Shown here: positions 3,717 through 20,838 of the stretch, piece after piece
Layout of the letters: each line of letters begins with the position of its first letter
Numbering within the stretch: position 1 is the first letter of the stretch
Source of the DNA: a virus
Lineage: Duplodnaviria; Heunggongvirae; Uroviricota; Caudoviricetes
Virus record (IMG/VR): IMGVR_UViG_2568526722_000004
Coordinates: 1 to 26,789 of that record
Length of the DNA: 26,789 bases
Reading direction: 5' to 3' (one strand)
Made by a program: the position numbers and the translations under genes
Notes under the pieces: model-generated
What the model saw: the letters and a program-made list of their open reading frames with translations, nothing else
Database searches by the model: none
What the model was told of the DNA's origin: nothing

Positions 3717-3719
3717 TAC

Positions 3720-4527: not shown

Positions 4528-4542
4528 TTCTTTTCCTTTTGC

Positions 4543-4590
4543 GTTGTTGGGGATAACCAGATTAACCGAATCCTTGTTGTTGGGGAATAA
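4543..4590. repeat. Two direct repeats GTTGTTGGGGA(A)TAAC upstream of the moron gene
   Basis: GTTGTTGGGGATAAC at 4543-4557 and GTTGTTGGGGAATAAC at 4575-4590, 16-48 bp upstream of the start codon at 4527. Confidence 0.5.
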
Positions 4591-4995
4591 CTAGGTCCAC
4601 CTCGCCTGATGTGGCTAAAAGCAGGCACATAACAGCTAAGTATTTTCAACCAGAGAGAATCCTTAGCGTTGTGGTGAATGCGGCTCAGCGCACGCGGGTT
4701 AAGGTTGAGGCTGACAGTCGACCTTCTGTGGATACCCACCCGCCTGGTGTGCAACCTTCGCCAGGCACCGGGAGGCACCCGGCACCACAACTTTATGCTG
4801 TGTGTAGTCTTGGCGGTACCAGCTTGTACCCTTGCTTCCGGCTGGTACCGTCCTTTTTACAAAACAGAGAAGAGCATCACCGGACGACGGGCTCATAACC
4901 CAATCCATCCGGGCGGCAGTCACCGCAGGTGTTCTTCTCTGTTTTGTGGAGAAACTAACCGACCTTGCAGGGTCGATATGATGAGGAGCAGCAAA

Positions 4996-5358
4996 ATGGC
5001 TAGCGAACGCAGTACTGATGTGCAGGCATTTATCGGGGAGCTGGACGGCGGCGTATTTGAAACCAAAATCGGCGCAGTTCTCAGTGAAGTCGCTTCCGGT
5101 GTGATGAACACGAAAACCAAAGGTAAGGTCTCGCTCAACCTGGAAATCGAACCGTTTGATGAGAACCGAGTGAAAATCAAACACAAACTCTCATATGTTC
5201 GCCCGACTAACCGCGGGAAAATTTCCGAAGAAGACACCACCGAAACGCCGATGTATGTCAATCGCGGTGGTCGCCTGACTATTCTGCAGGAAGACCAGGG
5301 ACAGTTACTGACTCTTGCCGGTGAACCTGACGGAAAACTCCGCGCAGCAGGTCGTTAA
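4996..5358 (+). CDS. Hypothetical prophage protein (yfdP-like position)
   Basis: 120-aa ORF from the ATG at 4996 with AGGAG RBS; the longer track ORF 4678..5358 has an implausible GC-rich, non-protein-like N-terminal part. Confidence 0.5.
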   Translation: MASERSTDVQAFIGELDGGVFETKIGAVLSEVASGVMNTKTKGKVSLNLEIEPFDENRVKIKHKLSYVRPTNRGKISEEDTTETPMYVNRGGRLTILQEDQGQLLTLAGEPDGKLRAAGR

Positions 5359-5423
5359 TATCGTTTTTAATTAACTGATTATTTATCTCATCACTGAATA
5401 TCTTTATATAGTGAGGACTTATT

Positions 5424-6248
5424 ATGTCTCAGAACTTAGACGCAACCGCAATTAATCAAATCCATGCCCTTATTTCTGCTCAGGGTGTTAATGAAATTAT
5501 CAGTAAGATTGGTGCCGATGCTGTGGCATTGCCTGAGAATTTCCGCATTCATGATCTGGAAAAATTTAATTTAAATCGCTTCCGTTTCCGTGGTGCGCTT
5601 TCCACTGCCAGCATCGATGACTTTACCCGTTATTCTAAAGATCTTGCAGATGAAGGCACCCGCTGCTTTATCGATGCTGATAATATGCGTGCCGTCAGTG
5701 TGCTTAACCTGGGTACTATTGATGAACCAGGTCACGCAGATAACACCGCCACACTCAAACTGAAAAAGACAGCACCGTTCTCTGCTCTGTTGTCTGTTAA
5801 CGGCGAGCGTAACTCCCAGAAGTCACTAGCAGAATGGATTGAAGACTGGGCCGACTATCTTGTGGGCTTTGATGCTAATGGTGACGCTATTCAGGCAACA
5901 AAAGCGGCTGCGGCTGTCCGTAAAATCACGATTGAAGCAAACCAGACCGCTGATTTTGAAGATAATGACTTCAGCGGCAAACGCTCCCTGATGGAGTCTG
6001 TCGAAGCGAAGACCAAAGACATTATGCCAGTGGCATTTGAATTTAAATGCGTTCCGTTTGAAGGTCTGAAAGAACGCCCGTTTAAATTACGCCTCAGTAT
6101 TATCACTGGCGATCGTCCTGTACTGGTTCTGCGCATTATTCAGCTGGAGGCGGTGCAGGAAGAAATGGCTAACGAATTTCGTGATCTGCTTGTTGAGAAA
6201 TTCAAGGACAGCAAAGTAGAAACCTTTATTGGTACTTTCACCGCCTGA
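5424..6248 (+). CDS. yfdQ: Prophage protein, YfdQ-like (274 aa)
   Basis: 274-aa ORF; size and gene order (274/178/120/101 aa) match the yfdQ-yfdR-yfdS-yfdT block of E. coli CPS-53/KplE1 as I recall it; symbol assigned from memory, not verified. Confidence 0.5.
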
Positions 6249-6375
6249 TTTCATTACTGCAAATGCCCCTGCGGGGGCATTTATGGAAACGTAATTTACT
6301 CAATAATCGCCGGATGGTGAGGGATTCTTTTTACCAGAATTCAGCGCGGTGCAGCGCATATACGTGGAGAACAAA

Positions 6376-6912
6376 ATGTCATTTATTAAAACTTTTTCCG
6401 GGAAGCATTTTTATTATGACAGGATAAATAAAGACGACATCGATATTAACGATATCGCGGTTTCCCTTTCAAATATCTGTCGCTTTGCCGGTCATCTTTC
6501 GCACTTCTACAGCGTCGCCCAACATGCGGTTCTTTGCAGCCAGCTGGTGCCGCAGGAATTTGCTTTTGAAGCGTTAATGCATGATGCAACAGAAGCGTAT
6601 TGCCAGGACATTCCCGCACCACTGAAACGCCTTCTTCCTGACTATAAACAAATGGAAGAAAAAATAGACGCCGTAATCCGTGAGAAATACGGGTTACCCC
6701 CAGTTATGAGTACGCCCGTGAAATATGCCGATCTCATCATGCTGGCAACCGAACGCCGCGATCTCGGACTTGATGATGGCTCTTTCTGGCCTGTATTGGA
6801 AGGTATCCCGGCAACAGAGATGTTCAAAGTGATTCCACTGGCTCCAGGCCATGCCTACGGGATGTTTATGGAACGTTTTAACGAGTTATCGGAGTTACGC
6901 AAATGCGCATGA
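6376..6912 (+). CDS. yfdR: HD-domain protein, YfdR-like 5'-deoxynucleotidase
   Basis: 178-aa protein from the ATG at 6376 with GGAGAA RBS; has H..HD-type metal-binding motifs (CRFAGH, MHDATEAY) typical of HD-domain phosphohydrolases. Confidence 0.55.
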   Translation: MSFIKTFSGKHFYYDRINKDDIDINDIAVSLSNICRFAGHLSHFYSVAQHAVLCSQLVPQEFAFEALMHDATEAYCQDIPAPLKRLLPDYKQMEEKIDAVIREKYGLPPVMSTPVKYADLIMLATERRDLGLDDGSFWPVLEGIPATEMFKVIPLAPGHAYGMFMERFNELSELRKCA

Positions 6913-7265
6913 ATGTTTTCGAAATGGAAGGGTTTCTTCGCGGGAAATGTGTACCGCGAGATCTGAAAGTGAACGAAACAAATGCTGAGTACCTGGTACG
7001 TAAATTCGATGCGCTTGAAGCTAAATGTGCAGCACAGGAAAACAAAGTAATACCAGTGTCAACTGAACTGCCACCAGCAAATGAAAGTGTTTTGTTATTC
7101 GATGCTAACGGAGAAGGCTGGCTAATTGGCTGGCGTTCTCTCTGGTACACCTGGGGACAAAAAGAAACCGGAGAATGGCAGTGGACATTTCAGGTCGGGG
7201 ACCTTGAAAACGTCAATATCACTCACTGGGCAGTAATGCCAAAAGCACCGGAGGCTGGAGCATAA
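6903..7265 (+). CDS. yfdS: Prophage protein, YfdS-like
   Basis: 120-aa ORF overlapping the yfdR-like stop; size and order match CPS-53 yfdS from memory. Confidence 0.45.
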   Translation: MRMNVFEMEGFLRGKCVPRDLKVNETNAEYLVRKFDALEAKCAAQENKVIPVSTELPPANESVLLFDANGEGWLIGWRSLWYTWGQKETGEWQWTFQVGDLENVNITHWAVMPKAPEAGA

Positions 7266-7570
7266 TGACCACTTTTACCGACAAAGAACTGATTAAAGAA
7301 ATTAAAGAGCGTATCAGCAGCCTTGACGTGCGAGACGATATTGAGCGCCGTGCTTATGAAATCGCACTCCTATCTCTGGAAGTAGAACCAGATGAACGCG
7401 AAGCTTATGAATTATTCATGGAAAAGCGTTTCGGTGACTTAGTAGATCGTCGGAGAGCAAAAAACGGCGATAACGAATACATGGCATGGGATATGACTCT
7501 CGGTTGGATCGTCTGGCAGCAACGAGCTGGTATCCATTTTTCAACAATGTCACAGCAAGAGGTGAAATAA
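7265..7570 (+). CDS. yfdT: Prophage protein, YfdT-like
   Basis: 101-aa ORF with stop/start overlap on both sides; size and order match CPS-53 yfdT from memory. Confidence 0.45.
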   Translation: MTTFTDKELIKEIKERISSLDVRDDIERRAYEIALLSLEVEPDEREAYELFMEKRFGDLVDRRRAKNGDNEYMAWDMTLGWIVWQQRAGIHFSTMSQQEVK

Positions 7571-7920
7571 TGGAGCCATACAGCCTCACACTCGATGAGG
7601 CCTGTCATTTTCTCAAGATATCCAGACCGACTGCCATTAACTGGATACGCACAGGGCGTCTTCAGGCAACACGCAAAGATCCCACTAAGAATAAATCTCC
7701 TTACCTCACAACACGACAAGCCTGCATTGCGGCTCTTCAGTCTCCGCTGCATACTGTCCAGGTGAGCGCGGGTGATGGCATAACAGAGGAAAGAAAATGT
7801 CACTCTTCCGCAGAGGTGAAATATGGTACGCCAGTTTCACATTGCCGAACGGTAAAAGATTTAAACAGTCTCTTGGAACAAAGGACAAAAGGCAGGCGAC
7901 AGAACTCCATGACAAGCTAA
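7570..7920 (+). CDS. Excisionase-like HTH protein (Xis/AlpA-type)
   Basis: ATG at 7570 with AGGTGA RBS; N-terminal [31 protein letters not shown] is an excisionase-type HTH; sits directly upstream of the integrase; the frame stays open to 7920, overlapping int by 124 nt, so the 3' end is uncertain. Confidence 0.5.
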
Positions 7921-8960
7921 AGGCTGAAGCATGGCGGGTCAGCAAACTTGGTGAAATACCTGATATAACGTTCGAGGAAGCGTGTGTCAGGTGGCTTGAA
8001 GAGAAAGCACATAAAAAATCACTGGACGATGACAAAAGCCGGATCGGATTCTGGCTTCAACATTTCGCAGGAATGCAACTAAGAGACATTACTGAATCAA
8101 AAATTTATTCAGCAATGCAGAAAATGACGAACCGGCGTCATGAGGAAAACTGGAAACTCAGGGCAGAAGCATGCAGAAAAAAAGGGAAACCTGTTCCAGA
8201 ATACACGCCAAAACCAGCGTCCGTTGCAACGAAGGCTACGCATCTTTCATTTATAAAGGCCCTACTAAGAGCCGCAGAGCGTGAATGGAAAATGCTGGAT
8301 AAGGCACCAATTATTAAAGTGCCCCAACCAAAGAATAAACGGATCCGCTGGCTGGAGCCCCATGAAGCACAAAGGCTGATTGATGAATGTCCGGAGCCAT
8401 TAAAGTCTGTTGTTGAATTTGCACTGGCAACAGGCCTAAGACGCTCGAACATCATCAACCTTGAATGGCAACAAATAGATATGCAGCGCCGGGTGGCATG
8501 GATAAACCCGGAAGAGAGTAAATCAAACCGCGCAATTGGCGTTGCGCTGAATGATACTGCATGTCGCGTATTGAAAAAACAAATCGGGAATCATCACCGT
8601 TGGGTATTTGTGTACAAGGAAAGCTGTACCAAACCAGACGGAACGAAAGCGCCAACAGTCAGGAAGATGCGGTATGACGCAAACACAGCCTGGAAAGCGG
8701 CGCTGAGACGGACTGGTATTGATGATTTCAGATTTCACGACTTGAGACACACCTGGGCAAGTTGGCTGGTTCAAGCCGGAGTCCCGTTGTCAGTGTTACA
8801 GGAAATGGGAGGCTGGGAGTCTATCGAAATGGTTCGTCGATATGCTCACCTTGCACCTAATCACCTTACCGAACACGCACGGCAAATAGACTCGATCCTA
8901 AACCCATCGGTCCCAAATTTGTCCCAGTCAAAAAATAAGGAAGGTACTAATGATGTGTAA
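7797..8960 (+). CDS. Tyrosine recombinase, lambdoid phage integrase
   Basis: 387-aa ORF; N-terminus [14 protein letters not shown]... (arm-binding type); C-terminal catalytic region ...[40 protein letters not shown] with the conserved HxxR and Tyr motif; ends 13 nt before a copy of the thrW 3' end. Confidence 0.85.
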
Positions 8961-8972
8961 CTTATTGATTTA

Positions 8973-8990
8973 AATGGTGCGATAATAGGA
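8973..8990. repeat. att core repeat (copy of the thrW 3' end): attR of element A and attL of element B
   Basis: AATGGTGCGATAATAGGA matches 25344-25362 AATGGTGCCGATAATAGGA (18/19, one C missing), same orientation. Confidence 0.7.
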
Positions 8991-9049
8991 ACAAATCAAA
9001 CCACATAACCAATTGATTTCTATTATATTTTTATGTTTTAGTTTTCAAC

Positions 9050-9070
9050 ATACCCCCAAAAGTACCCCCA
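9050..9070. repeat. 21-bp repeat ATACCCCCAAAAGTACCCCCA (candidate integrase arm-type site), copy 1
   Basis: Exact 21-bp direct repeat of 25211-25231; contains an internal TACCCCCA duplication; lies about 60 bp inside the left att core. Confidence 0.6.
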
Positions 9071-9307
9071 TAAGCGCCTGTATGATTAGACTCCGGGAAA
9101 AACATAAAAGCTATTCATTTAAGAGCTTTATGTCTTCATTCACTTTGTCAATTAAGAAAGATATCCAAACGAATAAAATTTCAATTTATTGAAGGCCATG
9201 TCATGTTTTCTATTTCTACAGTTTAAAAGTTTTATCATAACCTTCTGTTAGAACAGAATTAATTAGCAAAAAAACCCCAAGGGCATGAGGTTTTTTATTT
9301 TCCATTG

Positions 9308-10288
9308 TCATGCTAAAGCTCGAGCTACATTTTCTTTGATCGCAATAGCACAAGGAGTTTTGAACTTTTCTTTGCAACAGTGTAATAGCGTATTAATATT
9401 CAAATCAGTTTCAAGAATATTTTTTAGCTCACTCTTTCTTTCCGAGATTAAGGTTGGTTTATCTTTGCATTGTTTGACTATTAAGGCAGTTTCATTAATA
9501 TTCAATTGCTCTATCAATGATTTTATGACAGGCATGACAACTCTATCAGCTAAAAAATGACCATTGATATATTGATAGGCGTTATCTTCTCTCAATCCTT
9601 TATCATATAACTGCTCATAGAATTTATCAGCATCGTATTCATCTTGAATAAGGTTATCAAGTTTTTCTTCAATAACCGCTTTAGATTGCTGCATACTTTC
9701 AAATACAGCATTTTTGATAACAAATTGGTTCGTTAATCGTGGCACAGAAGGAGCAATCGCTTCATGGAAAACTGAGTCATCAAGTCTAACTTGATGCTGT
9801 TTAAGCAATAAAAATTTCTTCAGCACGGGGTAGATCAACCGTGAATACTCTGTAATGTATGCTGTAAAATCGAATTTAATTTCAGTAGCGATCTTTATTT
9901 GAGAAAGACAATACTCAAGGACTTCATGGTGTAACTCGATGCTCTCTTTTGAATATACAAATGTTTGAAAAATAAACTTGTTACTGCAAATTATCTCTGA
10001 GTCTGTACTGTTTTTAGGGCATAAATAATCAAAATCACTATCCATTGCAAATATGGCATATCGATTTGCTCGGCTCATGAATTTTTTTAATACTGGTTTC
10101 CCTTTTGTTCCTTTATTGGTAGGGTTACAAATATCAAAACGTATATCATTATCTTTATCGTTTAATAAGCCTTCCCAGAAAGAAATGTCTTTTAGACCTT
10201 CAACAAAGACAAAGCCATTGTGTCCAGCCATAATACAATATACCTGAAGATATTCTTCGCTAAAATTAATATCCTCAAACTCAGTCAT
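9308..10288 (-). CDS. ariB: AriB-like DUF4435/Toprim protein (PARIS defense system effector)
   Basis: 326-aa ORF overlapping the upstream ATPase gene by 8 nt; N-terminal Toprim-like features (MAGHNGFVFVEGLKD..., acidic AIFAMDSDFDY); low GC; the pairing with an ABC-type ATPase is the PARIS (AriA/AriB) architecture. Confidence 0.6.
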   Translation of the reverse strand: MTEFEDINFSEEYLQVYCIMAGHNGFVFVEGLKDISFWEGLLNDKDNDIRFDICNPTNKGTKGKPVLKKFMSRANRYAIFAMDSDFDYLCPKNSTDSEIICSNKFIFQTFVYSKESIELHHEVLEYCLSQIKIATEIKFDFTAYITEYSRLIYPVLKKFLLLKQHQVRLDDSVFHEAIAPSVPRLTNQFVIKNAVFESMQQSKAVIEEKLDNLIQDEYDADKFYEQLYDKGLREDNAYQYINGHFLADRVVMPVIKSLIEQLNINETALIVKQCKDKPTLISERKSELKNILETDLNINTLLHCCKEKFKTPCAIAIKENVARALA

Positions 10289-11276
10289 GAGAAGATTCCT
10301 TTGAAATATTTTTTATATCTACGAAAGAATCCATCCAGCCTTTCATTAATATTGCAGGACTATGAGTAACAATAATTAACTGACAATTATCGTTAATTGA
10401 TTTGATGGTGCTTATTAATCTTTCTTGCCACGTAAGGTGCAAGGATATTTCTGGCTCATCCATCAACAAGACAGATTCATCCAATGAAGTATTAGCTGTT
10501 TTAATCAGAATATATAACAACTGACGTTCACCTGATGAAAGAAGATTATACCTAATATCTTCACCAGAATCACTCATCTTAATAGAAATGTTACCATTAC
10601 TAAAAGAAACAACTTTGTTACATTCAGCAAATAAATTATTTATAGCTGATTCCAACTTATCCTTTATGAGAATACCTTTAGACTCACTTACTTTGAAAGT
10701 ATTCTTTAACCTTTCTAATTCACCAGCAATTTCCATATCAAGAATTGTGGTGCGCTCACCATCACTTTTTTTGAATTCATAGATGGAATTGGCACTCATA
10801 TTGATAGTTGATATTAACTCAACATTTATTCGCTTAGTGTTTTTAATATTATCACTTACGCTAACAGTTCCCATCCCGAACTCTTTAATTTCAGTGTCTT
10901 CTTTTTTCGATTCAAGCAACTCAATAAGTTCATTTAACTCCTTTATTTCCTTACCCTTTGATTTACCTTTAATACTGTTTTTCTTAAGGTTATTAAGTAG
11001 GTTTAGAAGCTGGACAGAGTCAATTTCGCGAAAATTAACTTTGTGAGTAATTGTGCCTCCATTGGCCAATGTTATTTGAGCCAACGCAGCATTACTTAAA
11101 CTTTCATTTAATTCTTGTTTTAAGAGGGCAAAAACACTTTGAATTATCGTGCTCTTACCTGAGCCATTTTTACCCACTAAAACATTCACATCTTTTAAAC
11201 TCCAATCAATGTCCTTCCGTTTAAAAAGACCTTTGATTGCTATATTTTTGATTATCGTCGCCACTCTCGTATCCAT
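10281..11276 (-). CDS. ariA: AriA-like ABC/AAA_15-21 ATPase (PARIS defense system sensor)
   Basis: 331-aa ORF; Walker A GKNGSGKST, signature-like LSSGERQLL, Walker B LLMDEPE, H-loop IIVTHS; low GC. Confidence 0.65.
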   Translation of the reverse strand: MDTRVATIIKNIAIKGLFKRKDIDWSLKDVNVLVGKNGSGKSTIIQSVFALLKQELNESLSNAALAQITLANGGTITHKVNFREIDSVQLLNLLNNLKKNSIKGKSKGKEIKELNELIELLESKKEDTEIKEFGMGTVSVSDNIKNTKRINVELISTINMSANSIYEFKKSDGERTTILDMEIAGELERLKNTFKVSESKGILIKDKLESAINNLFAECNKVVSFSNGNISIKMSDSGEDIRYNLLSSGERQLLYILIKTANTSLDESVLLMDEPEISLHLTWQERLISTIKSINDNCQLIIVTHSPAILMKGWMDSFVDIKNISKESSHD

Positions 11277-11653
11277 TATTATGAAAGTTGAAATGATTAT
11301 AACATGCTTAGCGTGCGCTTGGCATCTACCCTACAGTTGTTAGCAATAAACTTTATAACACAATGTAACACATTGAATTTAAACACTTAATATCAAATCC
11401 AACGCTAAACATCACGGAACCTGAAAGACTCTTGGCATTCTAGTTAGTACCTACTACGAAACGTTTTGAAAGGTTAAAGTGGACAGTCCGCATCAACTGT
11501 AACTTAAAATGCTCAGTAACGATGCATCTGCATGATTTGCAAAGTATGACAGAACTTCATTTGATGCTTTCACAAATGCGTGCCTGAAGTTTTCTAAAGC
11601 GGCGCGGTTAACTCTTTCTGGCTCAAAACCTTAATAAATCTGTATATCGCGGG

Positions 11654-11880
11654 TTGACACACTTGACACTTTTTCGGGAAAAACCTTAACAAAACTTAAC
11701 CTCCCCTGGCATTTCTAAGCATGGCAACTTGACACTTTTCGCGATTTTTTCGGCTTTTTGACGTGGTAAATCTGGCGAAAGGCCAGTAATGGCGCGGCTT
11801 ACAGCGAGGTTGACACTTTTTCGCGTTCAGAGTGTAAAGTGTCAACCTGGCAAGCTGCTCAACTTGACACTTTTTGATGT
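11654..11880. repeat. Array of TTGACAC(T)TTTT direct repeats plus one inverted copy
   Basis: GTTGACACACTTGACACTTTTTCGGG (~11654-11680), AACTTGACACTTTTCGCG (~11727), GGTTGACACTTTTTCGCG (~11808), inverted AGTGTAAAGTGTCAACC (~11831), AACTTGACACTTTTTGATG (~11862); immediately 3' of the 175-aa HTH gene. Confidence 0.55.
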
Positions 11881-12407
11881 CATTGATGGTCTGATTTTTC
11901 CCATTCAGCTAGGGCGTTTAGCCCGGCTTCACTCCATGATTCCAGTTCATCGGCATAATCACCTGCAACATAGCAGAGTTCGCAACGCAGCATACGAATT
12001 GCCAGCCTGGCATTACCTCGCAAATTGTATTTTTCAAAGTAATGCTGCCCTTCATCATCCTCAAGGCAGATAGCACCATCATCAAGAAAGTGCACTTCCC
12101 AGCCTAATTCCCCGGCTGCATCCAGCACACGCTGCTGTATGCCCTCGTCCGTTGCTGGCGCAGGAATTTTACCGCCTCTGGCCTTAACTGCTTTCCAGAA
12201 CTCGCCCCACGTCATTTCCAGCGTTCTTTCTGGCCACATTTCAGAAATGGTGTCTTTCCCCTGTGCTGGTGGGCTGTTCCGCTGCTCTGTCGCTTCCACA
12301 TCAATTTTTTTGCCAGACATGATCACTTCGCCTTTCTCGATCCAGTCGTAAACTGTCTGGCGGCTTACGCCTTTGTATTTGGCGTATTCGGCTTTACTCA
12401 TCAACAT
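11880..12407 (-). CDS. HTH-domain protein with terminase-small-subunit (Nu1)-like N-terminus; possible packaging or regulatory role
   Basis: 175-aa protein from the ATG at 12407 (GAGGTGA RBS 5 nt upstream); N-terminal MLMSKAEYAKYKGVSRQTVYDWIEKGEV resembles the winged-HTH of small terminase/Nu1-type proteins; the track's longer 202-aa form is an unlikely N-terminal extension. Confidence 0.5.
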   Translation of the reverse strand: MLMSKAEYAKYKGVSRQTVYDWIEKGEVIMSGKKIDVEATEQRNSPPAQGKDTISEMWPERTLEMTWGEFWKAVKARGGKIPAPATDEGIQQRVLDAAGELGWEVHFLDDGAICLEDDEGQHYFEKYNLRGNARLAIRMLRCELCYVAGDYADELESWSEAGLNALAEWEKSDHQ

Positions 12408-12506
12408 GTAGCTCACCTCATGCATATACGATAAAAAATAATTTAATGCGAAAAGGGAATGCGTTGTGGGTATGGAGGAAAGGGGCAATAACCGCCCCTT
12501 ACTGAT

Positions 12507-12779
12507 TCAGTTGCGCCAGGATGGCTGGCTAAGCGTGGTTTTCATTACATCATTGACGACCTGCTTTACGATTTCTGTGTTGGCAGTCGTGCTTTCAACA
12601 TCAACAAAGCCATAATCGCCAATTTCCACCGTCAGGGATTCCAGTTTCTTCCCCAGTGCATCAGGCAACTCTCCACTGAACCGGTGCCGAAGATTTTCCA
12701 CCAGCAAAGCCCTGAATGCCTCGCTGTTCTCTTTTTTCTGCCATAGCTGGCGTTTATCCACTCTGATATTTAATTTCAC
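12507..12779 (-). CDS. Hypothetical protein (90 aa)
   Basis: GTG start at 12779 overlapping the upstream stop (GTGA) and preceded by GAGGTGAGG; second gene of a three-gene operon. Confidence 0.45.
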   Translation of the reverse strand: MKLNIRVDKRQLWQKKENSEAFRALLVENLRHRFSGELPDALGKKLESLTVEIGDYGFVDVESTTANTEIVKQVVNDVMKTTLSQPSWRN

Positions 12780-12943
12780 AGCCTCACCTCTTTAAGTGCC
12801 TTATCCATCAGTTGCCGGGCAATAACATGAATCGACGGTGCCACACCAAGCACAGATTTCTGACGCTTTTCGGCCTGGATACGTTGCAGGGCTTCGATCT
12901 GCCCCCGGGAAAGTAAAACTGGCTTTACTCCGTGATTTTTCAT
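12776..12943 (-). CDS. Small putative DNA-binding protein (55 aa)
   Basis: ATG at 12943 with AAGGGA RBS; MKNHGVKPVLLSRGQIEALQRIQAEKRQKSVLGVAPSIHVIARQLMDKALKEVRL; palindromic operators lie just upstream; the track ORF 12776..13099 has a junk-like N-terminal extension. Confidence 0.45.
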   Translation of the reverse strand: MKNHGVKPVLLSRGQIEALQRIQAEKRQKSVLGVAPSIHVIARQLMDKALKEVRL

Positions 12944-12962
12944 GATGATCCCTTCTGAATGA

Positions 12963-13019
12963 CAATAATTGCAATTATTGCACAAATTGAAATAATACCA
13001 TCGATAATTGCAATAAATG
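12963..13019. promoter_or_regulatory. Palindromic operator candidates upstream of the 55-aa gene
   Basis: Perfect 18-bp palindrome CAATAATTGCAATTATTG (12963-12980) and related GATAATTGCAATAAATG (13003-13019) in an AT-rich region 20-80 bp upstream of the start at 12943. Confidence 0.5.
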
Positions 13020-13221
13020 AAACAAAAAGCATCAATAAACCAACCTTCGGCACTAAATGCTCTGATTTTTCTGCAAAGGTATGGCAGATGTTGCTGCATG
13101 CAAACATAAAGGAAATAGCAGAAGAAACAGCGGGGAGTGAAAAGGGGAAGTTTTTATAAATACACGATTGTCGCCTCACTGCAGGTTAACAGCCACAAAC
13201 CCCATGATAATAACTTGTTAA

Positions 13222-13545
13222 TTATTTCATCAGATTTTTCATTATTTGCGCGATTGAGTACACAAGCAAAAACTCGGCAGCCGCAAGAGTATAAAAAACA
13301 TAGATTCGCTTAGCCCACCGACGATGAAAGAACTCCTCAGCATGGCCGAATGTTCGAGATACAAGCCATGCACCTACTGCACACAGAGCAGGTGCAATGA
13401 GCACAGTTATAAACCAGATTGTGATGCCCATCCCATGCCTACTGATAATAGCCATTGGTATTGCAAAAATGAATGTTAGAGCAGCATTAGCTAATAGAAT
13501 ATCTTTTAAAGTATTTTCAATTAGTTTTTCTAGATTATCTTTCAT
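13222..13545 (-). CDS. Small integral membrane protein (about 3 TM helices)
   Basis: 107-aa ORF with hydrophobic segments (LLANAALTFIFAIPMAIISR, ITIWFITVLIAPALCAVGAWLV, IYVFYTLAAAEFLLVYSIAQI); AT-rich; directly downstream of the lipoprotein gene. Confidence 0.55.
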   Translation of the reverse strand: MKDNLEKLIENTLKDILLANAALTFIFAIPMAIISRHGMGITIWFITVLIAPALCAVGAWLVSRTFGHAEEFFHRRWAKRIYVFYTLAAAEFLLVYSIAQIMKNLMK

Positions 13546-13570
13546 CTAATCCCCCCCGTTGAACATTAAT

Positions 13571-13595
13571 ATATAAAAGCCCCTTACTAAGGGGC
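13571..13595 (-). terminator. Intergenic stem-loop with U-run between the lipoprotein and membrane-protein genes (terminator or attenuator)
   Basis: On the minus strand GCCCCT-UAGUA-AGGGGC followed by UUUUAUAUAUU; lies in the 64-bp gap between the two genes. Confidence 0.5.
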
Positions 13596-13609
13596 TTTGC
13601 ACGGATTGT

Positions 13610-14752
13610 TTAAAGGGAACTTTTTTTCGCCCCTTCAATTTCTTCCTGACAAATTTCGTCATTTGTAAATGAGTACTGCAGATAGACATATCCCTGAGTG
13701 GAATTGTTCGCTCTGGCCTCAATAGAGATAGTATCGATATTGTTTTTTAATGGTATTTCTTTTGTTCCCTTCCATGTGGCAGATAAGAAGCGTTCTTTTT
13801 TGTTTAGCCCCCTCATCCAGTCCTGAGGATCTTTCCAAATTGAACCAGCCAGCAAAAAGTCTGTAGTATCAGCCTTTCCATACAGAGAACTTAAAGAATT
13901 ACTCAATTCTTCAAACTTGGATTTAAGAGCCAATCCATAGCTATCAGTATCAATATTTTTTCCTAAAGCCCGTATTTGACATAAACCAGCTTTCGGGGAG
14001 ATCAACAAACCATACATTTCAAAATCTGCGTTTTGCTTCGGTAATTTATCAGAAGTATACAGATTCACACTGTCTGGTAGTGGCTTGAGCTTAGCACCGA
14101 TCATATCTTCGATGTTTTTCTGTGTAAGACCGGCTTCTAAGCCAAACGGACCATCCGCTGGCGGGAGTAAAGGAAGTTGCCCTTGGGAATTTTTGGCTGT
14201 TACTTCCGTTTCAGTACTGTTTTTTGCGTCATTATCTTGTACTGATGCCAGCTTAACTTCAGCGAGGCCATACTTGGCTGTGAGGTACTTTTGCTGCAAC
14301 ATTGCCATGGTCTGCTCTTCAGTGGCAACAGTAGATAATTTTAGTACCTTTATCAGACCACCACTATACTGACGAGCATCAGCTTTGGCTTCGTTGATTT
14401 TTGCATCTAAGCTGTCAATTTCAGTTTTAATTGAAGCCGCAAGCTCAGGATCAGGTTTTACTCCAGATACAACAACATCAATTTTGGCACCTGATTCAAT
14501 AGCATTAATACGCTGTTCCAAAAGCGCTTTATTAGTTCCTAATATTTCCAGTCTTGCTGTTGTCAGATTTTTTATCAACCCACCAGAAAACTGCTGGTCA
14601 ACTTCCTTAGCTGCTGATATTTCACCTTCCGTTTGCGACAGTTCAGCTTTAAGAGCCGCTACTTCCTGTTTCTGTTCTGGAGTTAACTCTTCTGGCCCAC
14701 ATCCGGTTAACATTACTATACCGACTAATGTTGCAATTAAAGTTTTATTCAT
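13610..14752 (-). CDS. Lipoprotein with internal tandem repeat, unknown function
   Basis: 380-aa ORF; signal peptide with lipobox (MNKTLIATLVGIVMLTGCG); two related ~55-aa repeats (…QQFSGGLIKNLTTARLEILGT… and …RQYSGGLIKVLKLSTVATEEQ…); AT-rich. Confidence 0.6.
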   Translation of the reverse strand: MNKTLIATLVGIVMLTGCGPEELTPEQKQEVAALKAELSQTEGEISAAKEVDQQFSGGLIKNLTTARLEILGTNKALLEQRINAIESGAKIDVVVSGVKPDPELAASIKTEIDSLDAKINEAKADARQYSGGLIKVLKLSTVATEEQTMAMLQQKYLTAKYGLAEVKLASVQDNDAKNSTETEVTAKNSQGQLPLLPPADGPFGLEAGLTQKNIEDMIGAKLKPLPDSVNLYTSDKLPKQNADFEMYGLLISPKAGLCQIRALGKNIDTDSYGLALKSKFEELSNSLSSLYGKADTTDFLLAGSIWKDPQDWMRGLNKKERFLSATWKGTKEIPLKNNIDTISIEARANNSTQGYVYLQYSFTNDEICQEEIEGAKKSSL

Positions 14753-14929
14753 ATCCCTATTCCAAATGAAAATATTCAGATTAATCTTATCAGGAACCCA
14801 GATGCAATTGAATATTCATCTGCTCAGCAACGTAGTAGATTTCCTCAGAAAGCATCAACAAAAAACCAAGAGAATCCCATCCTCTGTTACTGACTACAAT
14901 TGTTCTTTTTTTGGTATTTCCTGAATGCC

Positions 14930-15175
14930 TCACCATTGAGCTGATGTAATCCCATCCCGGCATGTGCCCGGCTGATGGTTTCGCGCATCTCCCCCGAAAT
15001 TATCCTGCCTTGCTGGTGGGCGTGCTGCCTTGTGGATACATTCCGCGCGACGTTTTGCCGCCTGTTCCCGTGCCTTGTCATCATTCGCCAGCATGATGAC
15101 CTCAGCCCACCGCGCCGCCGCTCTCCGGTACAGACCACGCGCTTCCAGTGCTTCCGCTTTGCTGTCGTGAATCAT
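14930..15175 (-). CDS. PerC-family transcriptional regulator-like protein
   Basis: 81-aa ORF with ATGA overlap to the upstream gene; MIHDSKAEALEARGLYRRAAARWAEVIM... resembles PerC/Pch-type proteins. Confidence 0.5.
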   Translation of the reverse strand: MIHDSKAEALEARGLYRRAAARWAEVIMLANDDKAREQAAKRRAECIHKAARPPARQDNFGGDARNHQPGTCRDGITSAQW

Positions 15176-15684
15176 GCGCCTATTGTCTCCTTTGCTGCCC
15201 GGCGCTGGCGTTTGCGCTTCTCATTCAGCGCCACCAGCCGCGTTTCTGCGTCCTGTTGTTCCTGTGGTGTCACCTCGCCGCACGGCTGGCCTTTCAGGTC
15301 GTAGCGTACCCCACCAGCCATTAAGGCGCGGTAATAGTGCGGACACTGCGCATAAGATGCCAGCGTCGCACGCAATGCCCCTGGCCCGAATGCCAGCCCC
15401 CTGACGGCGAGATCCTGCATCAGGTCGTCGAATATCCCCACCTTAAGCGGCTTCGGTGCTTCCCGGCTGAATAAGTCAGGCCACAACTCAGTGAGGCGGT
15501 TAACGCGCCTGCGGTTTTTGCGCTGGCGTTTGGTCATATGCCGCCACGGTGTCGCCCCTGTGGGCTTTTGCTGCGCTTTCTGGTTACCGGGCATCACTTT
15601 ATGCGCCGATGTGGTTTTATGATCTTACCCAGCAATAGTGGACACGCGGCTAAGTGAGTAAACTCTCAGTCAGAGGTGACTCAC

Positions 15685-15984
15685 ATGACAAAAACAGTAT
15701 CAACCAGTAAAAAACCCCGTAAACAGCATTCGCCTGAATTTCGCAGTGAAGCCCTGAAGCTTGCTGAACGCATCGGTGTTACTGCCGCAGCCCGTGAACT
15801 CAGCCTGTATGAATCACAACTCTACAACTGGCGCAGTAAACAGCAAAATCAGCAGACGTCTTCTGAACGTGAACTGGAGATGTCTACCGAGATTGCACGT
15901 CTCAAACGCCAGCTGGCAGAACGGGATGAAGAGCTGGCTATCCTCCAAAAGGCCGCGACATACTTCGCGAAGCGCCTGAAATGA
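15685..15984 (+). CDS. insE: IS3 transposase OrfA (InsE)
   Basis: 99-aa product [32 protein letters not shown]... with AGGTGA RBS; matches IS3 InsE from memory. Confidence 0.9.
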
Positions 15985-16847
15985 AGTATGTCTTTATTGA
16001 AAAACATCAGGCTGAGTTCAGCATCAAAGCAATGTGCCGCGTGCTCCGGGTGGCCCGCAGCGGCTGGTATACGTGGTGTCAGCGGCGGACAAGGATAAGC
16101 ACGCGTCAGCAGTTCCGCCAACACTGCGACAGCGTTGTCCTCGCGGCTTTTACCCGGTCAAAACAGCGTTACGGTGCCCCACGCCTGACGGATGAACTGC
16201 GTGCTCAGGGTTACCCCTTTAACGTAAAAACCGTGGCGGCAAGCCTGCGCCGTCAGGGACTGAGGGCAAAGGCCTCCCGGAAGTTCAGCCCGGTCAGCTA
16301 CCGCGCACACGGCCTGCCTGTGTCAGAAAATCTGTTGGAGCAGGATTTTTACGCCAGTGGCCCGAACCAGAAGTGGGCAGGAGACATCACGTACTTACGT
16401 ACAGATGAAGGCTGGCTGTATCTGGCAGTGGTCATTGACCTGTGGTCACGTGCCGTTATTGGCTGGTCAATGTCGCCACGCATGACGGCGCAACTGGCCT
16501 GCGATGCCCTGCAGATGGCGCTGTGGCGGCGTAAGAGGCCCCGGAACGTTATCGTTCACACGGACCGTGGAGGCCAGTACTGTTCAGCAGATTATCAGGC
16601 GCAACTGAAGCGGCATAATCTGCGTGGAAGTATGAGCGCAAAAGGTTGCTGCTACGATAATGCCTGCGTGGAAAGCTTCTTTCATTCGCTGAAAGTGGAA
16701 TGTATCCATGGAGAACACTTTATCAGCCGGGAAATAATGCGGGCAACGGTGTTTAATTATATCGAATGTGATTACAATCGGTGGCGGCGGCACAGTTGGT
16801 GTGGCGGCCTCAGTCCGGAACAATTTGAAAACAAGAACCTCGCTTAG
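15981..16847 (+). CDS. insF: IS3 transposase OrfB (InsF), DDE catalytic domain; expressed as OrfAB by -1 frameshift
   Basis: 288-aa ORF overlapping the orfA stop (ATGA); DDE-type integrase core (…HTDRGGQY…, …[11 protein letters not shown]…). Confidence 0.9.
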
Positions 16848-16982
16848 GCCTGTGTCCATATTACGTGGGTAGGATCATTATCCTGCTCCTGCGCCGCCTG
16901 CGTCGTTTTCTGCGGCGTGCCGTAAATGCCTTTCGGTTTTCTGTTAATGGTCAGCTTAGTCATGCTTTGCCCCATCGTTACA

Positions 16983-17316
16983 ACTGTCTACCAACTGTCT
17001 ACCGATATAATTGTTTGATTTATTTAATGTTATTAATACATAACAAAAAAACAATCTGCAAACTGTCTACCAACTCTCTACAGTATTAATACATTGATAA
17101 TTAATGACTTTTACTAAATGGTAGACAGTGTAGATAGTTAAAAGAAAAATTTTAAAAATGAACCCATAACTATCTATTTTTAGATACCCCCGTGGTTTAG
17201 AAATATAAAATAAACTGTCCACCTCTCTACCACATTAAAAATACCTATATAATTCAAAACATTAATTAGTAGATGGTTGGTAGAGGGTTAAGTGTATCTG
17301 TCTACCAACCGTCTAC
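16983..17316. repeat. Iteron-like repeat array in AT-rich DNA downstream of the primase gene (candidate replication origin)
   Basis: CTGTCTACCAACTGTCTACC (16983-17002), CTGTCTACCAACTCTCTAC (17063-17081), inverted GGTAGACAGTGTAGATAG (~17120), CTGTCCACCTCTCTACCAC (~17215), inverted GGTTGGTAGAGGG (~17276), CTGTCTACCAACCGTCTAC (17298-17316). Confidence 0.6.
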
Positions 17317-17344
17317 TTTTAAGTTTCAACTTATAAATTTCGTA

Positions 17345-19150
17345 TCATGTTCTGTCGTTAATGCCTGCCGTTGCTGGTAACCATCCATCAGCATCTTTAT
17401 CTAACAGAACATTTGTGATCGTTCGCCCTTTATCTGGACCTTTAGTGCATTTAGCCCGCTTGTACTCCTTTCCGTACTCAGCCATTGCCCCTGGCATATC
17501 TGTACCAAAGCGTGTCAGTGATACCGGTTTTCCCAGACCATGCGCAGACATATAAGCCAAATAAGCATGATACAGATATCGCCTCGGACTAAATGGCACT
17601 ATTTCTGCATTACCTACTATCATTCCCTCACATTTAACCAACGACATCAGATAACCGCAGAAGTCCACCAGCGAATCACCTTCACGCTTTATCAACAGTG
17701 CTTCTTCTGATTTTTGCTGCTCATAAAGTAGTCTTTTCGCTTCGTCCTGGTCGGCAAATCGTGTAAGCAAATGGCGAATCACTACTGCCAGTTCCCCTTC
17801 TATCTTTTTCGCCAGCATCGGATCGCGTTCGTTCTCTGGTACAACCTCAGAGAAATTAAATATTACTCGTCGACGCGAGATCCCCCCACTACGGTCGCTG
17901 AATGACATGGCATAATTGTTTACTGCCAGCACTACCGCAGGAACGCGCGTGGAATAGGGCGCTTTGTGTTTCGGATCGATAGCCACCTTGTCACCGCCTG
18001 TAATGGCCTTAATCCCAGCACCATCACCTGCGTAGCGGGTCATGTCAGGCATGATAATCAGAGAATATCCCACCACTAACGCTCGTTCCCTCGCGTCTTC
18101 CAGCGCCTTCATGCTCGCCGATACTGTATTGGCCTTACCCGCCAGCATGGTACAAATCTCCGCCATCACACTTTTACCGCTTCCGCCCGGCCCCGTTACC
18201 TCAAGGAATAACTGCCAGTCGTACCGGTTCGCCAGTACCATGAATAATGCCGCCAGTACGCGATCCGCTTTACGAGCATTATCCGCCACCGAACGACGCA
18301 ACCACTTCCAGAAATTCGGCGCATGTGTTGCCAGCGTTTCCCCCTCTTCTGGCGGGCTGAACGGTAATTCACTGGCATTTAACAACCAGTCATTTTTGTT
18401 GTGTTCCCGAAAATTTCCTGTCCTGATATCAAAAACACCGTTACTGAACCCAATAAGATTTCTGTCCGCTCCCCCCATAACAGGTAGACTCAATTTCATT
18501 GTCTCTACGGCAAATTTAATGGCGTTTTGCGAATAACTAATTTCGGCATCAATAAAAATCTTCGCCATAGACCGCTGGAGTTCCTTATCAGATACAGGCT
18601 CCCAAACAATTCCGTTGTAATGGTGAACTACATCAGAATCATCATTTATCGCCAGTGCTCCTCCATAATGTTCAAGTAACACTTCCCCTCTCTGGCTGGC
18701 TCCCATCTGATTTAATGCAGGCTTGGGTAGACCACTATTTTTTGTAGCTAATTTCATCACTGAAACTTCCCCGTGCTCAGCCTGTTCGCGGATCCGTTGC
18801 AGGTAGTCGCGCCAGTTCTCCGGTTCCTGGTCGGTGATACCTTTGTATAATTTCGCCTCCTGTACGCCAGCCAGCGCCAGCTTTTCAGCGATAGTATTGA
18901 TCTGGATTGGCTCTATCTCCCCCGCGATATAGACACGCGCAAAACGGCGTTTCTCGTCAATAATGCGGATATTCGCCAGGTCTGCCAGTTGCTTTGGCCC
19001 CAGGTAAACAGGAGGCACGTTATCGCCGTGTTTTCGTCCTTCACTTTCAATCCAGTGTTGAGCATGGGCGTAAGCATCCATCCCGGCAAAAATGATTACC
19101 TCAGTGAATTTATCCTTCGGCTGATATTTTAGACTCGGTGCGTTTTTCAC
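17345..19150 (-). CDS. Replication primase/helicase-like protein (P4 alpha / D5-type SF3 NTPase family)
   Basis: 601-aa ORF; Walker A in ...LEVTGPGGSGKSVMAE...; last gene of a tightly coupled operon; followed by the iteron array. Confidence 0.7.
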   Translation of the reverse strand: MKNAPSLKYQPKDKFTEVIIFAGMDAYAHAQHWIESEGRKHGDNVPPVYLGPKQLADLANIRIIDEKRRFARVYIAGEIEPIQINTIAEKLALAGVQEAKLYKGITDQEPENWRDYLQRIREQAEHGEVSVMKLATKNSGLPKPALNQMGASQRGEVLLEHYGGALAINDDSDVVHHYNGIVWEPVSDKELQRSMAKIFIDAEISYSQNAIKFAVETMKLSLPVMGGADRNLIGFSNGVFDIRTGNFREHNKNDWLLNASELPFSPPEEGETLATHAPNFWKWLRRSVADNARKADRVLAALFMVLANRYDWQLFLEVTGPGGSGKSVMAEICTMLAGKANTVSASMKALEDARERALVVGYSLIIMPDMTRYAGDGAGIKAITGGDKVAIDPKHKAPYSTRVPAVVLAVNNYAMSFSDRSGGISRRRVIFNFSEVVPENERDPMLAKKIEGELAVVIRHLLTRFADQDEAKRLLYEQQKSEEALLIKREGDSLVDFCGYLMSLVKCEGMIVGNAEIVPFSPRRYLYHAYLAYMSAHGLGKPVSLTRFGTDMPGAMAEYGKEYKRAKCTKGPDKGRTITNVLLDKDADGWLPATAGINDRT

Positions 19151-19437
19151 TTCTTACCTCCCGCAACCAACATTGCCCGGATTTTTTTAATATTCGTGGC
19201 TGCACGTCTCGCCACTGCCTGTTGTTTGTTTTCCACCACAATAAAATCACGATCAAACTGACGGCGCGGCATTACGCAGTCATATTCGTAAGCCTCACGG
19301 CGGTAGGTGATATTGCCTGGCGTAACGTGACGAATAACCACCCGTCCCCCGCGTCTGGTGTCCCGGAAAATATCACCGGGGCGGATTTCAGGCCGAGAGA
19401 GGCCGCTGGCAGTAAAGCCAGAATTTTTCTTTTTCAT
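19147..19437 (-). CDS. Hypothetical protein (replication operon)
   Basis: 96-aa ORF whose stop overlaps the primase start (ATGA). Confidence 0.45.
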   Translation of the reverse strand: MKKKNSGFTASGLSRPEIRPGDIFRDTRRGGRVVIRHVTPGNITYRREAYEYDCVMPRRQFDRDFIVVENKQQAVARRAATNIKKIRAMLVAGGKK

Positions 19438-19441
19438 GGTT

Positions 19442-19642
19442 TTATTTTCCTGTCAGCAGTTCCGGTTTTATTTCCGCACGAATACAAAGTTCAGAAAAAA
19501 ATTCAGGAGAACCAACAATCTCATTACTTTTCAGTCGGCATTGTGATTTCACTTTCCCTTTATCCAGGTAAACCAGTACGCGTCCGGTGAAATCATCTGG
19601 CACATTAAGCACTACGGGTACATGCGCTTCATGATTATGCAT
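19442..19642 (-). CDS. Hypothetical protein (replication operon)
   Basis: 66-aa ORF; start overlaps the upstream stop by 8 nt. Confidence 0.4.
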   Translation of the reverse strand: MHNHEAHVPVVLNVPDDFTGRVLVYLDKGKVKSQCRLKSNEIVGSPEFFSELCIRAEIKPELLTGK

Positions 19643-19868
19643 GGCTTACATCCTCCGTGAATTTTCTTCTGTAACGCGTCTCTGCCACATATTCCGCATA
19701 GTCCGACGCAATACTAAGAATCATTTCACCCTCTGACTTGTAGCCACTGGTATTGATAAGAAAATATGCAGCTTTCATCATGTCAGCAACGCTCAACAAT
19801 GCGCCCGCTGCATCTTCCGGTGCGCCATCAAATTCCCGTTTCAGGGAATTAAAACGATCATCACGCAT
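19635..19868 (-). CDS. Hypothetical protein (replication operon)
   Basis: 77-aa ORF; start overlaps the upstream stop by 8 nt. Confidence 0.4.
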   Translation of the reverse strand: MRDDRFNSLKREFDGAPEDAAGALLSVADMMKAAYFLINTSGYKSEGEMILSIASDYAEYVAETRYRRKFTEDVSHA

Positions 19869-20226
19869 GTTTACCCCCCTGAATGACCTGATAACCGCAA
19901 CTGGTCAGCAACTCGATAAATTCCGGCAGTGTGCCGAAACAGCAATCATCACGCAGCCGTTCGCGGGATACTTCAACGCCGTTTTCGTAGTGACTCACCA
20001 TACGCCCGGTAAAATGCAGATCATCATCGTGATGGCTCGTTGACGGCTTAATCAGTCGCGCACGTTCCGCCAGTTCCAGCAATGCTTCAACGCTTCCGGC
20101 AATTGCACCATCCGGCAGGTGGTAATTACGCACTATGCGCCCGTTCTCCACATTGACCAGCAACTGCCCGGTAAATTTCTCGTCAAACTGAATGCTGTTA
20201 AGGTCAGAAATTGACAGGTTATGCAT
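19861..20226 (-). CDS. Hypothetical protein (replication operon)
   Basis: 121-aa protein from the second ATG (20226), which has a perfect AGGAGG RBS 6 nt upstream; the track start at 20244 is less likely. Confidence 0.45.
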   Translation of the reverse strand: MHNLSISDLNSIQFDEKFTGQLLVNVENGRIVRNYHLPDGAIAGSVEALLELAERARLIKPSTSHHDDDLHFTGRMVSHYENGVEVSRERLRDDCCFGTLPEFIELLTSCGYQVIQGGKHA

Positions 20227-20443
20227 GGTGCACCTCCTGCACATCAGCCATGATAATTTTTCCGGCCTTATCCAGTGCCTGATCGGCTTTTAGCTGCACA
20301 AATGCTAAATAATGGGAGATGCATTCTGATTCTCTGGCTGCGTGTTTATGCGCCACACCAGCGATAGCAGAAATCTCAATAAGTGAATCCATCAGCGTTT
20401 TGATAGCGTCTACCGCTGCATCAGGCCATGTTGCATTACACAT
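20219..20443 (-). CDS. Hypothetical protein (replication operon)
   Basis: 74-aa ORF; start overlaps the upstream stop by 8 nt. Confidence 0.4.
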   Translation of the reverse strand: MCNATWPDAAVDAIKTLMDSLIEISAIAGVAHKHAARESECISHYLAFVQLKADQALDKAGKIIMADVQEVHHA

Positions 20444-20639: not shown

Positions 20640-20735
20640 AGCTACCTCGATACTCTTGCTATCGTTGGTGGTTAGACGCCCTGCATGTGTGCCACCACTG
20701 CGGGGCGTTGTCGTTTCTGCACCTTGCATCAACAA

Positions 20736-20789: not shown

Positions 20790-20838
20790 TATTTTTTTTC
20801 CTGCATACTGCATTTGTTTTTTGTAAGGGGTACACAAC

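Follow-up and report, generated by a model that had tools for sequence, protein, structure and literature searches.

A conserved winged-helix gene and TTGACAC array in an EcCIMP1-like phage satellite: a candidate packaging-specificity unit behind a ribbon-helix-helix gene

Introduction

What do three small genes contribute to the phage satellite whose last conserved transcription unit they form? The genes lie in a 26,789-nucleotide stretch of DNA (hereafter the window; positions 1 to 26,789 of IMG/VR record IMGVR_UViG_2568526722_000004, classified in the Caudoviricetes), within a 16.4-kb phage-inducible chromosomal island (PICI) that resembles EcCIMP1. A first-pass annotation had described them as a translationally coupled operon encoding products of 55, 90 and 175 amino acids (aa) and preceded by an 18-bp palindrome, and had conjectured that they form a toxin-antitoxin-like pair followed by an effector. 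Here we find that the 175-aa gene and an array of TTGACAC sites immediately past it, which was absent from that annotation, form a conserved unit. We propose that the three genes and the array constitute a late unit of the satellite, gated by the 55-aa ribbon-helix-helix (RHH) protein, in which the 175-aa protein and the array provide packaging specificity; this complete statement is offered tentatively, since we judge it to fall just short of evenly balanced. The features on which it turns are the following.

12943 to 12776, minus strand: 55-aa open reading frame (ORF), ATG start
12779 to 12507, minus strand: 90-aa ORF, GTG start overlapping the TGA of the 55-aa ORF as GTGA (12776-12779)
12407 to 11880, minus strand: 175-aa ORF, ATG start, product beginning MLMSK
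11654 to 11874, no strand assigned: seven TTGACAC(TTT) sites, forming an array that the 175-aa protein presumably binds

Results and Discussion

The 175-aa gene is followed by a conserved array of TTGACAC sites

The first copy of the array stands 10 nt past the stop codon of the 175-aa gene. Five exact copies of TTGACACTTT fall within 11663-11873, four on the plus strand (starting at 11663, 11729, 11810 and 11864) and one on the minus strand (11836-11845), and none occurs elsewhere in the window; partial copies are located at 11654-11660 and 11832-11838. Comparable clusters of T(T/G)(G/T)ACAC, with five to nine copies in both orientations within about 250 nt of the stop codon, lie 3' of homologues of the gene in Escherichia ruysiae, Klebsiella, Rouxiella, Pantoea (three alleles), Raoultella and Buttiauxella, compared with a background in the flanks of about 0.4 per 400 nt. 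In all, such clusters accompany the gene in eight genera, with the first site 10-23 nt past the stop codon.

As an unbiased test of the association, 2.9 million IMG/VR contigs were scanned for the paired motif AAAGTGTCAA-N15-45-TTGACACTTT, and 68 loci (given below as L numbers) matched. At 47 of the 68, the pair is preceded at a distance of 10-23 nt by the end of a homologue of the 175-aa protein (46-96% identity), whose orientation never varies; all but one of these homologues (46) are full-length, with that of L085 aligning only from residue 22. Most of the other loci carry a divergent variant. In one example, L084, the repeats (about 10) are found upstream of a gene for a related winged-helix protein of 194 aa. 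This gene again comes after an RHH homologue, and its product both aligns with the 175-aa family (hhalign probability 96.6%) and matches the Nu1 family over residues 1-99. Collectively, the 175-aa gene and its array are a conserved unit.

Other elements recur in and around the array. Two non-repeat blocks within it, CCAGTAATGGCG (11783-11794) and CCTGGCATTTCTAAGCAT (11705-11722), are conserved among E. coli, Raoultella and Pantoea although the adjacent protein is only about 50% identical, and are candidates for a cleavage or host-factor site. In addition, a short ORF (about 61 aa) that the E. coli window lacks is found just past the array in L003 (Klebsiella, 9384-9572), L007 (Pantoea, 9800-9985) and L006 (Rouxiella, ~9890-10085). 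In Klebsiella and Rouxiella its product ends in ...AAKERHRQRMT.P.Y.WRKP; the copy in Pantoea has diverged further, and that in Klebsiella matches phrog_7271. An Rfam search returned nothing relevant.

The 175-aa protein joins a Nu1-type winged helix to a distinct C-terminal domain

The AlphaFold model of the 175-aa protein (predicted local distance difference test score, 88) contains a winged helix-turn-helix (HTH) of the lambda Nu1/Xis/BldC type in residues 1-45, a disordered linker in residues 45-55 and a compact alpha/beta domain in residues 60-172. The C-terminal domain gave no confident structural match, and a BFVD fold search with the model matched the HTH domain alone. The best family match is to phrog_57, "terminase small subunit" (E 3.8e-6), and covers residues 1-42 only. 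Lambda Nu1 itself scores 1.3e-76 against the same profile, which identifies phrog_57 as the Nu1 family; direct hhalign comparison of the 175-aa family with Nu1 aligned only 33 columns with a probability of 16%. Thus, of the Nu1-type features, the N-terminal winged helix is present, whereas the regions of Nu1 used for oligomerization and for binding the large terminase subunit (TerL) are not matched.

The 175-aa protein has about 100 homologous clusters, whose named sources are all Enterobacterales, and nearly all homologues are 167-179 aa long and start with MLMSK. Residues S15, R16 and Q17 of the recognition helix are invariant in the family. An analysis of covariation between this helix and the motif variants TTGACAC and TTTACAC was uninformative because the helix is too conserved.

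A packaging role for the protein and array, and the regulatory alternative

In the reading that we prefer, the 175-aa winged helix would bind the TTGACAC array, the bound pair would mark satellite DNA as a private cosB- or pac-like site, and the C-terminal domain would recruit the terminase of the helper phage. The protein would thereby work like Rpp, or like a small terminase subunit (TerS) with cosB, as a member of neither family. That the protein and array amount to a previously undescribed satellite packaging-specificity system, in which a winged helix like that of Nu1 is joined to a domain that binds the helper and reads a private, multi-site pac/cosB-like signal, is a narrower claim, which we regard as possible rather than probable; under it, the array would also serve as a fixed boundary for the exchange of defence cargo.

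Four observations led to the packaging reading. The closest sequence-level relation of the 175-aa protein is the Nu1 TerS family. The gene and array occupy the position of rpp and cos in characterized PICIs, where these lie near the 3' end, before the accessory genes (PMC6739421, PMC9026076). No other terS, rpp or cos candidate was found in the island. Finally, the order at L084, sites and then gene, equals the order in lambda.

Comparison with the Rpp proteins (RppA/B/C) and the cos1/cosB sites of EcCICFT073-type PICIs reveals both likenesses and differences. Like the 175-aa protein, Rpp has an N-terminal winged helix resembling that of lambda TerS (PMC6739421; PMC9026076); its gene likewise adjoins its presumed target site, close to the island's 3' end and ahead of accessory genes; and its job, providing a private packaging signal for the satellite, is the one proposed here. 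However, the 175-aa protein has no sequence similarity to Rpp and is longer (175 versus 135-153 aa), and its C-terminal domain is alpha/beta, in contrast to the three-helix coiled coil by which Rpp dimerizes. Rather than the single R3-like upstream site of Rpp, there are five to nine repeated sites, mostly downstream. The Rpp islands also have a lambda-like cosQ/cosN directly upstream of the gene, which the present island lacks, and binding of helper TerS by the 175-aa protein is hypothetical. Membership of the Rpp family was rejected on the different C-terminal fold and the absence of a sequence match in a phmmer search against all PDB chains (including RppC, 6HN7; E<=10). The differences from lambda gpNu1 (TerS) and its cosB sites R1-R3 run in parallel: the 175-aa protein has no helical oligomerization and TerL-binding region, its gene has no adjacent terL or cosN, and its sites usually come after the gene. 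Indeed, the annotation of the island includes no large terminase subunit. A search for lambda cos (GGGCGGCGACCT with at most two mismatches) and for P2-type cos gave no credible match inside the island, which is therefore neither an Rpp/lambda-cos nor a P4-like element.

Several points weigh against the packaging reading. For this module, DNA binding, packaging and transfer are predictions from sequence. The C-terminal domain resembles neither TerS nor Rpp, and the winged-helix fold alone is no sign of packaging, since it is common to excisionases, MerR/BldC regulators and TerS. No cosN-type cleavage site was identified. Neither the array region nor the 175-aa protein is shared by any phage in INPHARED, and Serratia oryzae has the three genes with the TTGACAC motif missing. 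For the first gene of the unit, the link between the RHH protein and its operators is positional and comparative, and a dimeric beta-ribbon goes beyond what a monomer model shows. A helper-phage source for the region was sought in INPHARED and set aside: blastn returned nothing beyond chance matches of 40 bp to the early region of Stx phages, and tblastn gave no match.

The main rival is that the 175-aa protein, which RefSeq labels a "MerR family transcriptional regulator", acts solely as a transcription factor of the BldC/MerR/AlpA type, multimerizing on the array without a direct packaging role. Its targets might be read-through into the hotspot beyond the array, antisense control, or activation of helper late genes. 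We consider this unlikely, although it is the alternative that fares best. The array lies mostly downstream of the gene, and either about 340 nt or a terminator-like inverted repeat intervenes between it and the cargo promoter. Here, the defence system PARIS has its own TG-extended promoter-like site at 11325-11296, about 340 nt past the last repeat, and in Pantoea the array is set apart from the cargo by an inverted repeat and T-run, whose sequence we interpret as an intrinsic terminator. The array also stays constant while the cargo differs completely among elements; this and the distance led us to reject it as a PARIS promoter or operator. In addition, most TTGACA copies are not followed by a usable -10, and the top family-level match of the protein is, as noted, a TerS family. 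Were the packaging reading wrong, the protein and array would still be a well-defined regulator-plus-operator pair for the control of satellite genes.

If the packaging reading is right, it would account for the entry into phage capsids of the abundant Type C PICIs of enterobacteria, which are without terS, rpp or helper-like cos. EcCIMP1 is a PICI of E. coli MP1 whose helper-dependent induction and mobilization by phage Kapi1 were shown experimentally, and its authors state that the packaging mechanism of EcCIMP1-type ("Type C") PICIs is unknown (PMC11773190). A DNA-binding protein with an array of sites at the boundary between core and cargo is a testable candidate for this missing step.

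Three coding genes behind a putative autoregulated promoter

All three ORFs are genuine coding genes. Ratios of nonsynonymous to synonymous substitution (dN/dS), calculated by the Nei-Gojobori method against natural alleles from other genomes and viral contigs, lie between 0 and 0.13 for the 90-aa gene (for example, 12 synonymous versus 2 nonsynonymous differences). For the 55-aa gene, counting alleles that have three or more synonymous differences, the range is 0.14-0.65, and the 175-aa gene gives 0.14-0.58. The order 55-90-175 is also found in E. ruysiae and in S. oryzae, where the proteins are 48-66% identical. The sizes of the genes given in the first-pass annotation are borne out, and the possibility it had raised, that the small ORFs go untranslated, conflicts with the purifying ratios and the conserved order. 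The ribosome-binding sites it reported are likewise present, as a Shine-Dalgarno-like purine-rich stretch precedes each start (GAAGGGA, AGAGGTGAGG and GAGGTGA, respectively).

The claim of translational coupling throughout holds in part. The 55-aa and 90-aa genes overlap at GTGA, but 99 nt separate the 90-aa stop from the 175-aa start, and this spacer contains a hairpin.

12480 to 12500, minus strand: hairpin with an 8-bp stem, directly 3' of the 90-aa stop

Because of this gap, coupling is possible only between the first two genes. The hairpin has no proper U-tract and is therefore at most a weak terminator or a stabilizer.

Upstream of the 55-aa gene, both the perfect palindrome and the related site described earlier were located, and a promoter-like element lies between them.

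12963 to 12980, no strand assigned: proximal operator O1, the perfect 18-bp palindrome CAATAATTGCAATTATTG, at -37 to -20 from the 55-aa ATG
13004 to 13019, no strand assigned: distal operator-like site O2, ATAATTGCAATAAATG, an imperfect copy sharing the TTGCAAT core of O1
12992 to 13000, minus strand: putative extended -10, TGGTATTAT (TGnTATAAT), recognized from its sequence only

CAATAATTGCAATTATTG is the sole perfect palindrome with arms of at least 7 nt in the window, and a perfect palindrome with arms of at least 9 nt arose in only 10% of 300 dinucleotide-preserving shuffles. Reading along the minus strand, the order is CATTTATTGCAATTATCGA-TGGTATTAT-TTCAATTTGTG-CAATAATTGCAATTATTG, with the ATG 20 nt past the end of the palindrome. 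The centers of O1 and O2 are about 39 bp apart; O2 overlaps the -35 region of the putative promoter and O1 spans roughly +5 to +22. Operators at the -35 region and just past the start are the classic layout of autorepression. The element TGnTAT.AT is retained in E. ruysiae (L009).

The 55-aa protein adopts a beta-alpha-alpha RHH fold over residues ~6-53 in a fold comparison with its monomer model. The earlier statement that the first two proteins could not be placed in a known family stands at the sequence level, where neither the single 55-aa sequence nor its family profile matched Pfam, PHROG or PDB sequences, and gives way for the 55-aa protein at the level of fold, which alone placed it. 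The family comprises 27 homologous clusters, with named sources again all from Enterobacterales, and shows the conserved pattern VKPVLL...Q..A...IQ..ER..S.LGVAPSIHVIARQLMDKAL. The RHH repressors Arc/Mnt, CopG and omega resemble the 55-aa protein in size (45-55 aa) and in fold, and they likewise have an operator of short inverted or tandem subsites at their own promoter. Unlike them, the 55-aa protein has no sequence-level family match (Pfam, PDB profile), and its DNA binding and dimerization are predicted.

Palindromes with arms of 8-15 nt, placed at -15 to -75, also precede the RHH orthologues of E. ruysiae, Rouxiella (two loci), Pantoea, Raoultella and S. oryzae, and those in Escherichia, Rouxiella, Pantoea and Raoultella are centered on TGCAAT/TTGCAA. 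Because the orthologues carry these TGCAAT-rich upstream palindromes too, the 55-aa protein is probably an autorepressor at its own promoter. In the proposed mechanism, an RHH dimer of dimers on O1 and O2, which bracket the extended -10, would shut the operon until the satellite cycle begins.

RefSeq annotates a divergent 66-aa ORF here (WP_024170960; 12959-13159, plus strand), the start of which falls within O1. Only close E. coli alleles keep this ORF intact, and no counterpart was found outside the genus; it is probably spurious, although plus-strand promoter-like sites overlap the operators (12969-13008).

A variable slot between the RHH and winged-helix genes

The middle gene is the part of the operon that changes. 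The 90-aa protein is an orphan, strongly constrained by purifying selection. When 1.84 billion cluster representatives were searched exhaustively with an HMMER profile, its family yielded only five, including two fragments. In relatives from Rouxiella, Pantoea and Klebsiella, the slot between the RHH and winged-helix genes is instead filled by tail-tip genes (L006, Rouxiella, 6541-8664; L007, Pantoea, 6170-8982; L003, Klebsiella, 4501-7522). These encode a Dit-like or tail-fibre protein (phrog_817, E 2e-55) and a baseplate hub (phrog_196, E 5e-77), and further slot genes encode a 116-aa protein and a Gp138_N/Apex-type spike. At L084 the slot holds a tail-fibre assembly protein. The winged-helix gene is last in the operon in every case, and the RHH gene is first in the Rouxiella operon; in Pantoea L007 two short ORFs directly precede it. 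Because the slot holds tail-tip genes elsewhere, we read the unit as the "late" operon of the satellite. Since related satellites hold baseplate genes in this position, our best guess for the 90-aa protein would be an accessory role in helper interference or in the virion.

The conjectured toxin-antitoxin-like module, in which the 55-aa and 90-aa proteins form a type II pair autoregulated at the palindrome and the 175-aa protein is an effector, is not supported by these comparisons and is improbable. An RHH gene, an overlapping gene for a product of about 90 aa and an upstream palindrome do make up the classic type II layout, and the 90-aa protein is an orphan without an assigned function. However, the RHH fold occupies nearly all of a protein of only 55 aa, leaving no room for a C-terminal neutralizing extension, and in three genera (Rouxiella, Pantoea and Raoultella) RHH orthologues occur without the 90-aa gene, ahead of baseplate genes. 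The 90-aa protein has no toxin match in Pfam, PADLOC, PHROG or PDB-sequence searches, and its handful of cluster representatives is at odds with toxin folds, which are widespread. Moreover, the conserved partner of the module is the winged-helix gene with its array and not the 90-aa gene.

The Pantoea, Rouxiella and Klebsiella satellites seem to bring their own baseplate parts, perhaps retargeting helper virions. Klebsiella L003-L005 are apparently helper-embedded satellites, inserted between late genes of a prophage whose tail module is of the E217/PhiTE type, and the insertion of L004 adjoins a capsid gene fragment.

The island, its replication origin and two further alternatives

The three-gene block belongs to the following element.

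8981 to 25362, minus strand: whole PICI, between 10-bp direct repeats TCCTATTATC at 8981-8990 and 25353-25362
16982 to 17306, no strand assigned: PICI replication origin, with six or more GGTAGACAGTT iterons in both orientations flanking an AT-rich stretch
9308 to 11276, minus strand: PARIS defence system, with AriA at 10281-11276 (331 aa) and AriB/DUF4435 at 9308-10288 (326 aa)

The second TCCTATTATC repeat lies inside a tRNA-Thr gene (25346-25421). The island has the integrase, the regulator in the AlpA position, the primase, the iteron origin and the attachment (att) repeats of Gram-negative PICIs, is within their 10-20 kb size range, and contains no virion structural genes. The annotated neighbourhoods of the region run from tRNA-Thr through a tyrosine integrase, a hypothetical gene and a small HTH gene in the AlpA position; then an AntA/B antirepressor, an Icd-like gene, DUF4222, the DNA primase, ProQ/FinO, PerC and two hypotheticals; and finally the three-gene block, an AAA ATPase with a DUF4435 protein, a LysR remnant and paoD. 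The 1.6-kb region under study is chromosomal, being found in 167 of 5426 complete E. coli genomes (~3%).

The att core and insertion site match those reported for EcCIMP1, and the element is thus an EcCIMP1-like PICI in tRNA-Thr next to proA. EcCIMP1 occupies the tRNA-Thr site between proA and yagU with the same core, TCCTATTATC (PMC11773190), and shares the backbone types of tyrosine integrase, AlpA-position HTH, AntA/B, Icd-like, primase and PerC genes. It differs in having none of the three genes and no array; P22-like ejection proteins are found in its post-primase module.

The origin lies directly downstream of the primase gene (17345-19150), an architecture described for Gram-negative PICIs (PMC6092414). 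Its presence bears on a further alternative, that the array is a second cis-acting replication element, comparable to crr of P4, or a partition-type site, and that the 175-aa protein is an initiator or adaptor. The repeated sites are iteron-like, and long arrays of the same motif lie beside AT-rich DNA in two unrelated phage-like contigs (L030 and L052). However, a complete origin of the PICI type, with different iterons, already follows the primase, and on this ground the array was rejected as an origin. The array is not AT-rich, and its spacing is irregular (66, 81 and 54 nt). Furthermore, the P4 ori and crr have one common iteron sequence, whereas the origin and array here differ. We therefore find this reading very improbable. 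The two metagenomic contigs (L030, 11150-11950; L052, ~6600-7400) each contain about 20 AAAGTGTCAA/AAAGTGTAAA repeats, and the L052 array lies 1.2-2 kb upstream of an ORF in the terS position and a large terminase gene.

Least probable of all is that the 175-aa protein is an excisionase (recombination directionality factor) with the array as its arm-type sites. Such sites are expected within about 100-150 bp of the att core, but 2.67 kb lie between the array and the nearer core (8981-8990) and 13.5 kb between it and the farther one, and its distance from att varies with the cargo in relatives. The island already has an AlpA-position HTH gene adjoining int, and 175 aa with an extra domain contrasts with the 55-80 aa typical of excisionases.

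The array marks the edge of a defence hotspot

The segment 3' of the array is hypervariable among otherwise similar islands (L009, L035, L039, L046, L071 and others), in which it extends 0.3-4.5 kb past the array. In the present island it contains PARIS (PADLOC: AriA, E 2.6e-43; AriB, E 3.6e-22), in E. ruysiae it contains bSEFIR, and other islands have a type II methyltransferase with an NsnA/restriction endonuclease-like pair or one of several unassigned sets of one or two genes. PICIs are known to carry immune systems at their 5' or 3' ends (PMC11364771). Because of this hypervariability, the array is a usable landmark for the hotspot. Here a late operon, a candidate packaging site and a hypervariable anti-phage hotspot follow one another, as do the late region, cos site and hotspot of P4, in whose hotspot PARIS was first described (PMC9122126). 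Unlike P4, however, the present island belongs to another satellite family with other proteins, has no P2-type cos, and has its hotspot abutting attR and not int.

The island type, PARIS and RHH repressors are already known. For the module of RHH gene, variable slot, winged-helix gene and TTGACAC array, no description was found in the searchable literature. About 3% of complete E. coli genomes have a PICI of this backbone, as do members of several further enterobacterial genera. These islands carry PARIS, bSEFIR or restriction-modification-like genes directly past the module, making it a practical landmark for locating defence hotspots.

Additional features of the window

The island copy in the window is 1261 bp longer than that of NZ_CM170160 between the PerC/ProQ genes and the primase (~15676-16935). 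In the extra DNA are two ORFs on the plus strand (102 and 288 aa), of the kind found in IS3-family elements. PerC is annotated as frameshifted in the RefSeq copies. Between PerC and the operon (13222-14752, minus strand) are two genes whose products match no family, one a 380-aa protein bearing a lipoprotein signal (…LTGC) and the other a membrane protein of 107 aa. They possibly represent accessory cargo of the "downstream of pri" region that has been described in PICIs. A second, different island adjoins the PICI at 1-8980 and includes an integrase-like ORF at 7797-8960; in the best-matching genome, a RepA-family helicase, YfdQ and other genes are annotated in this region. The resulting tandem layout of 1-8980 and the PICI is as in E. 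coli MP1.

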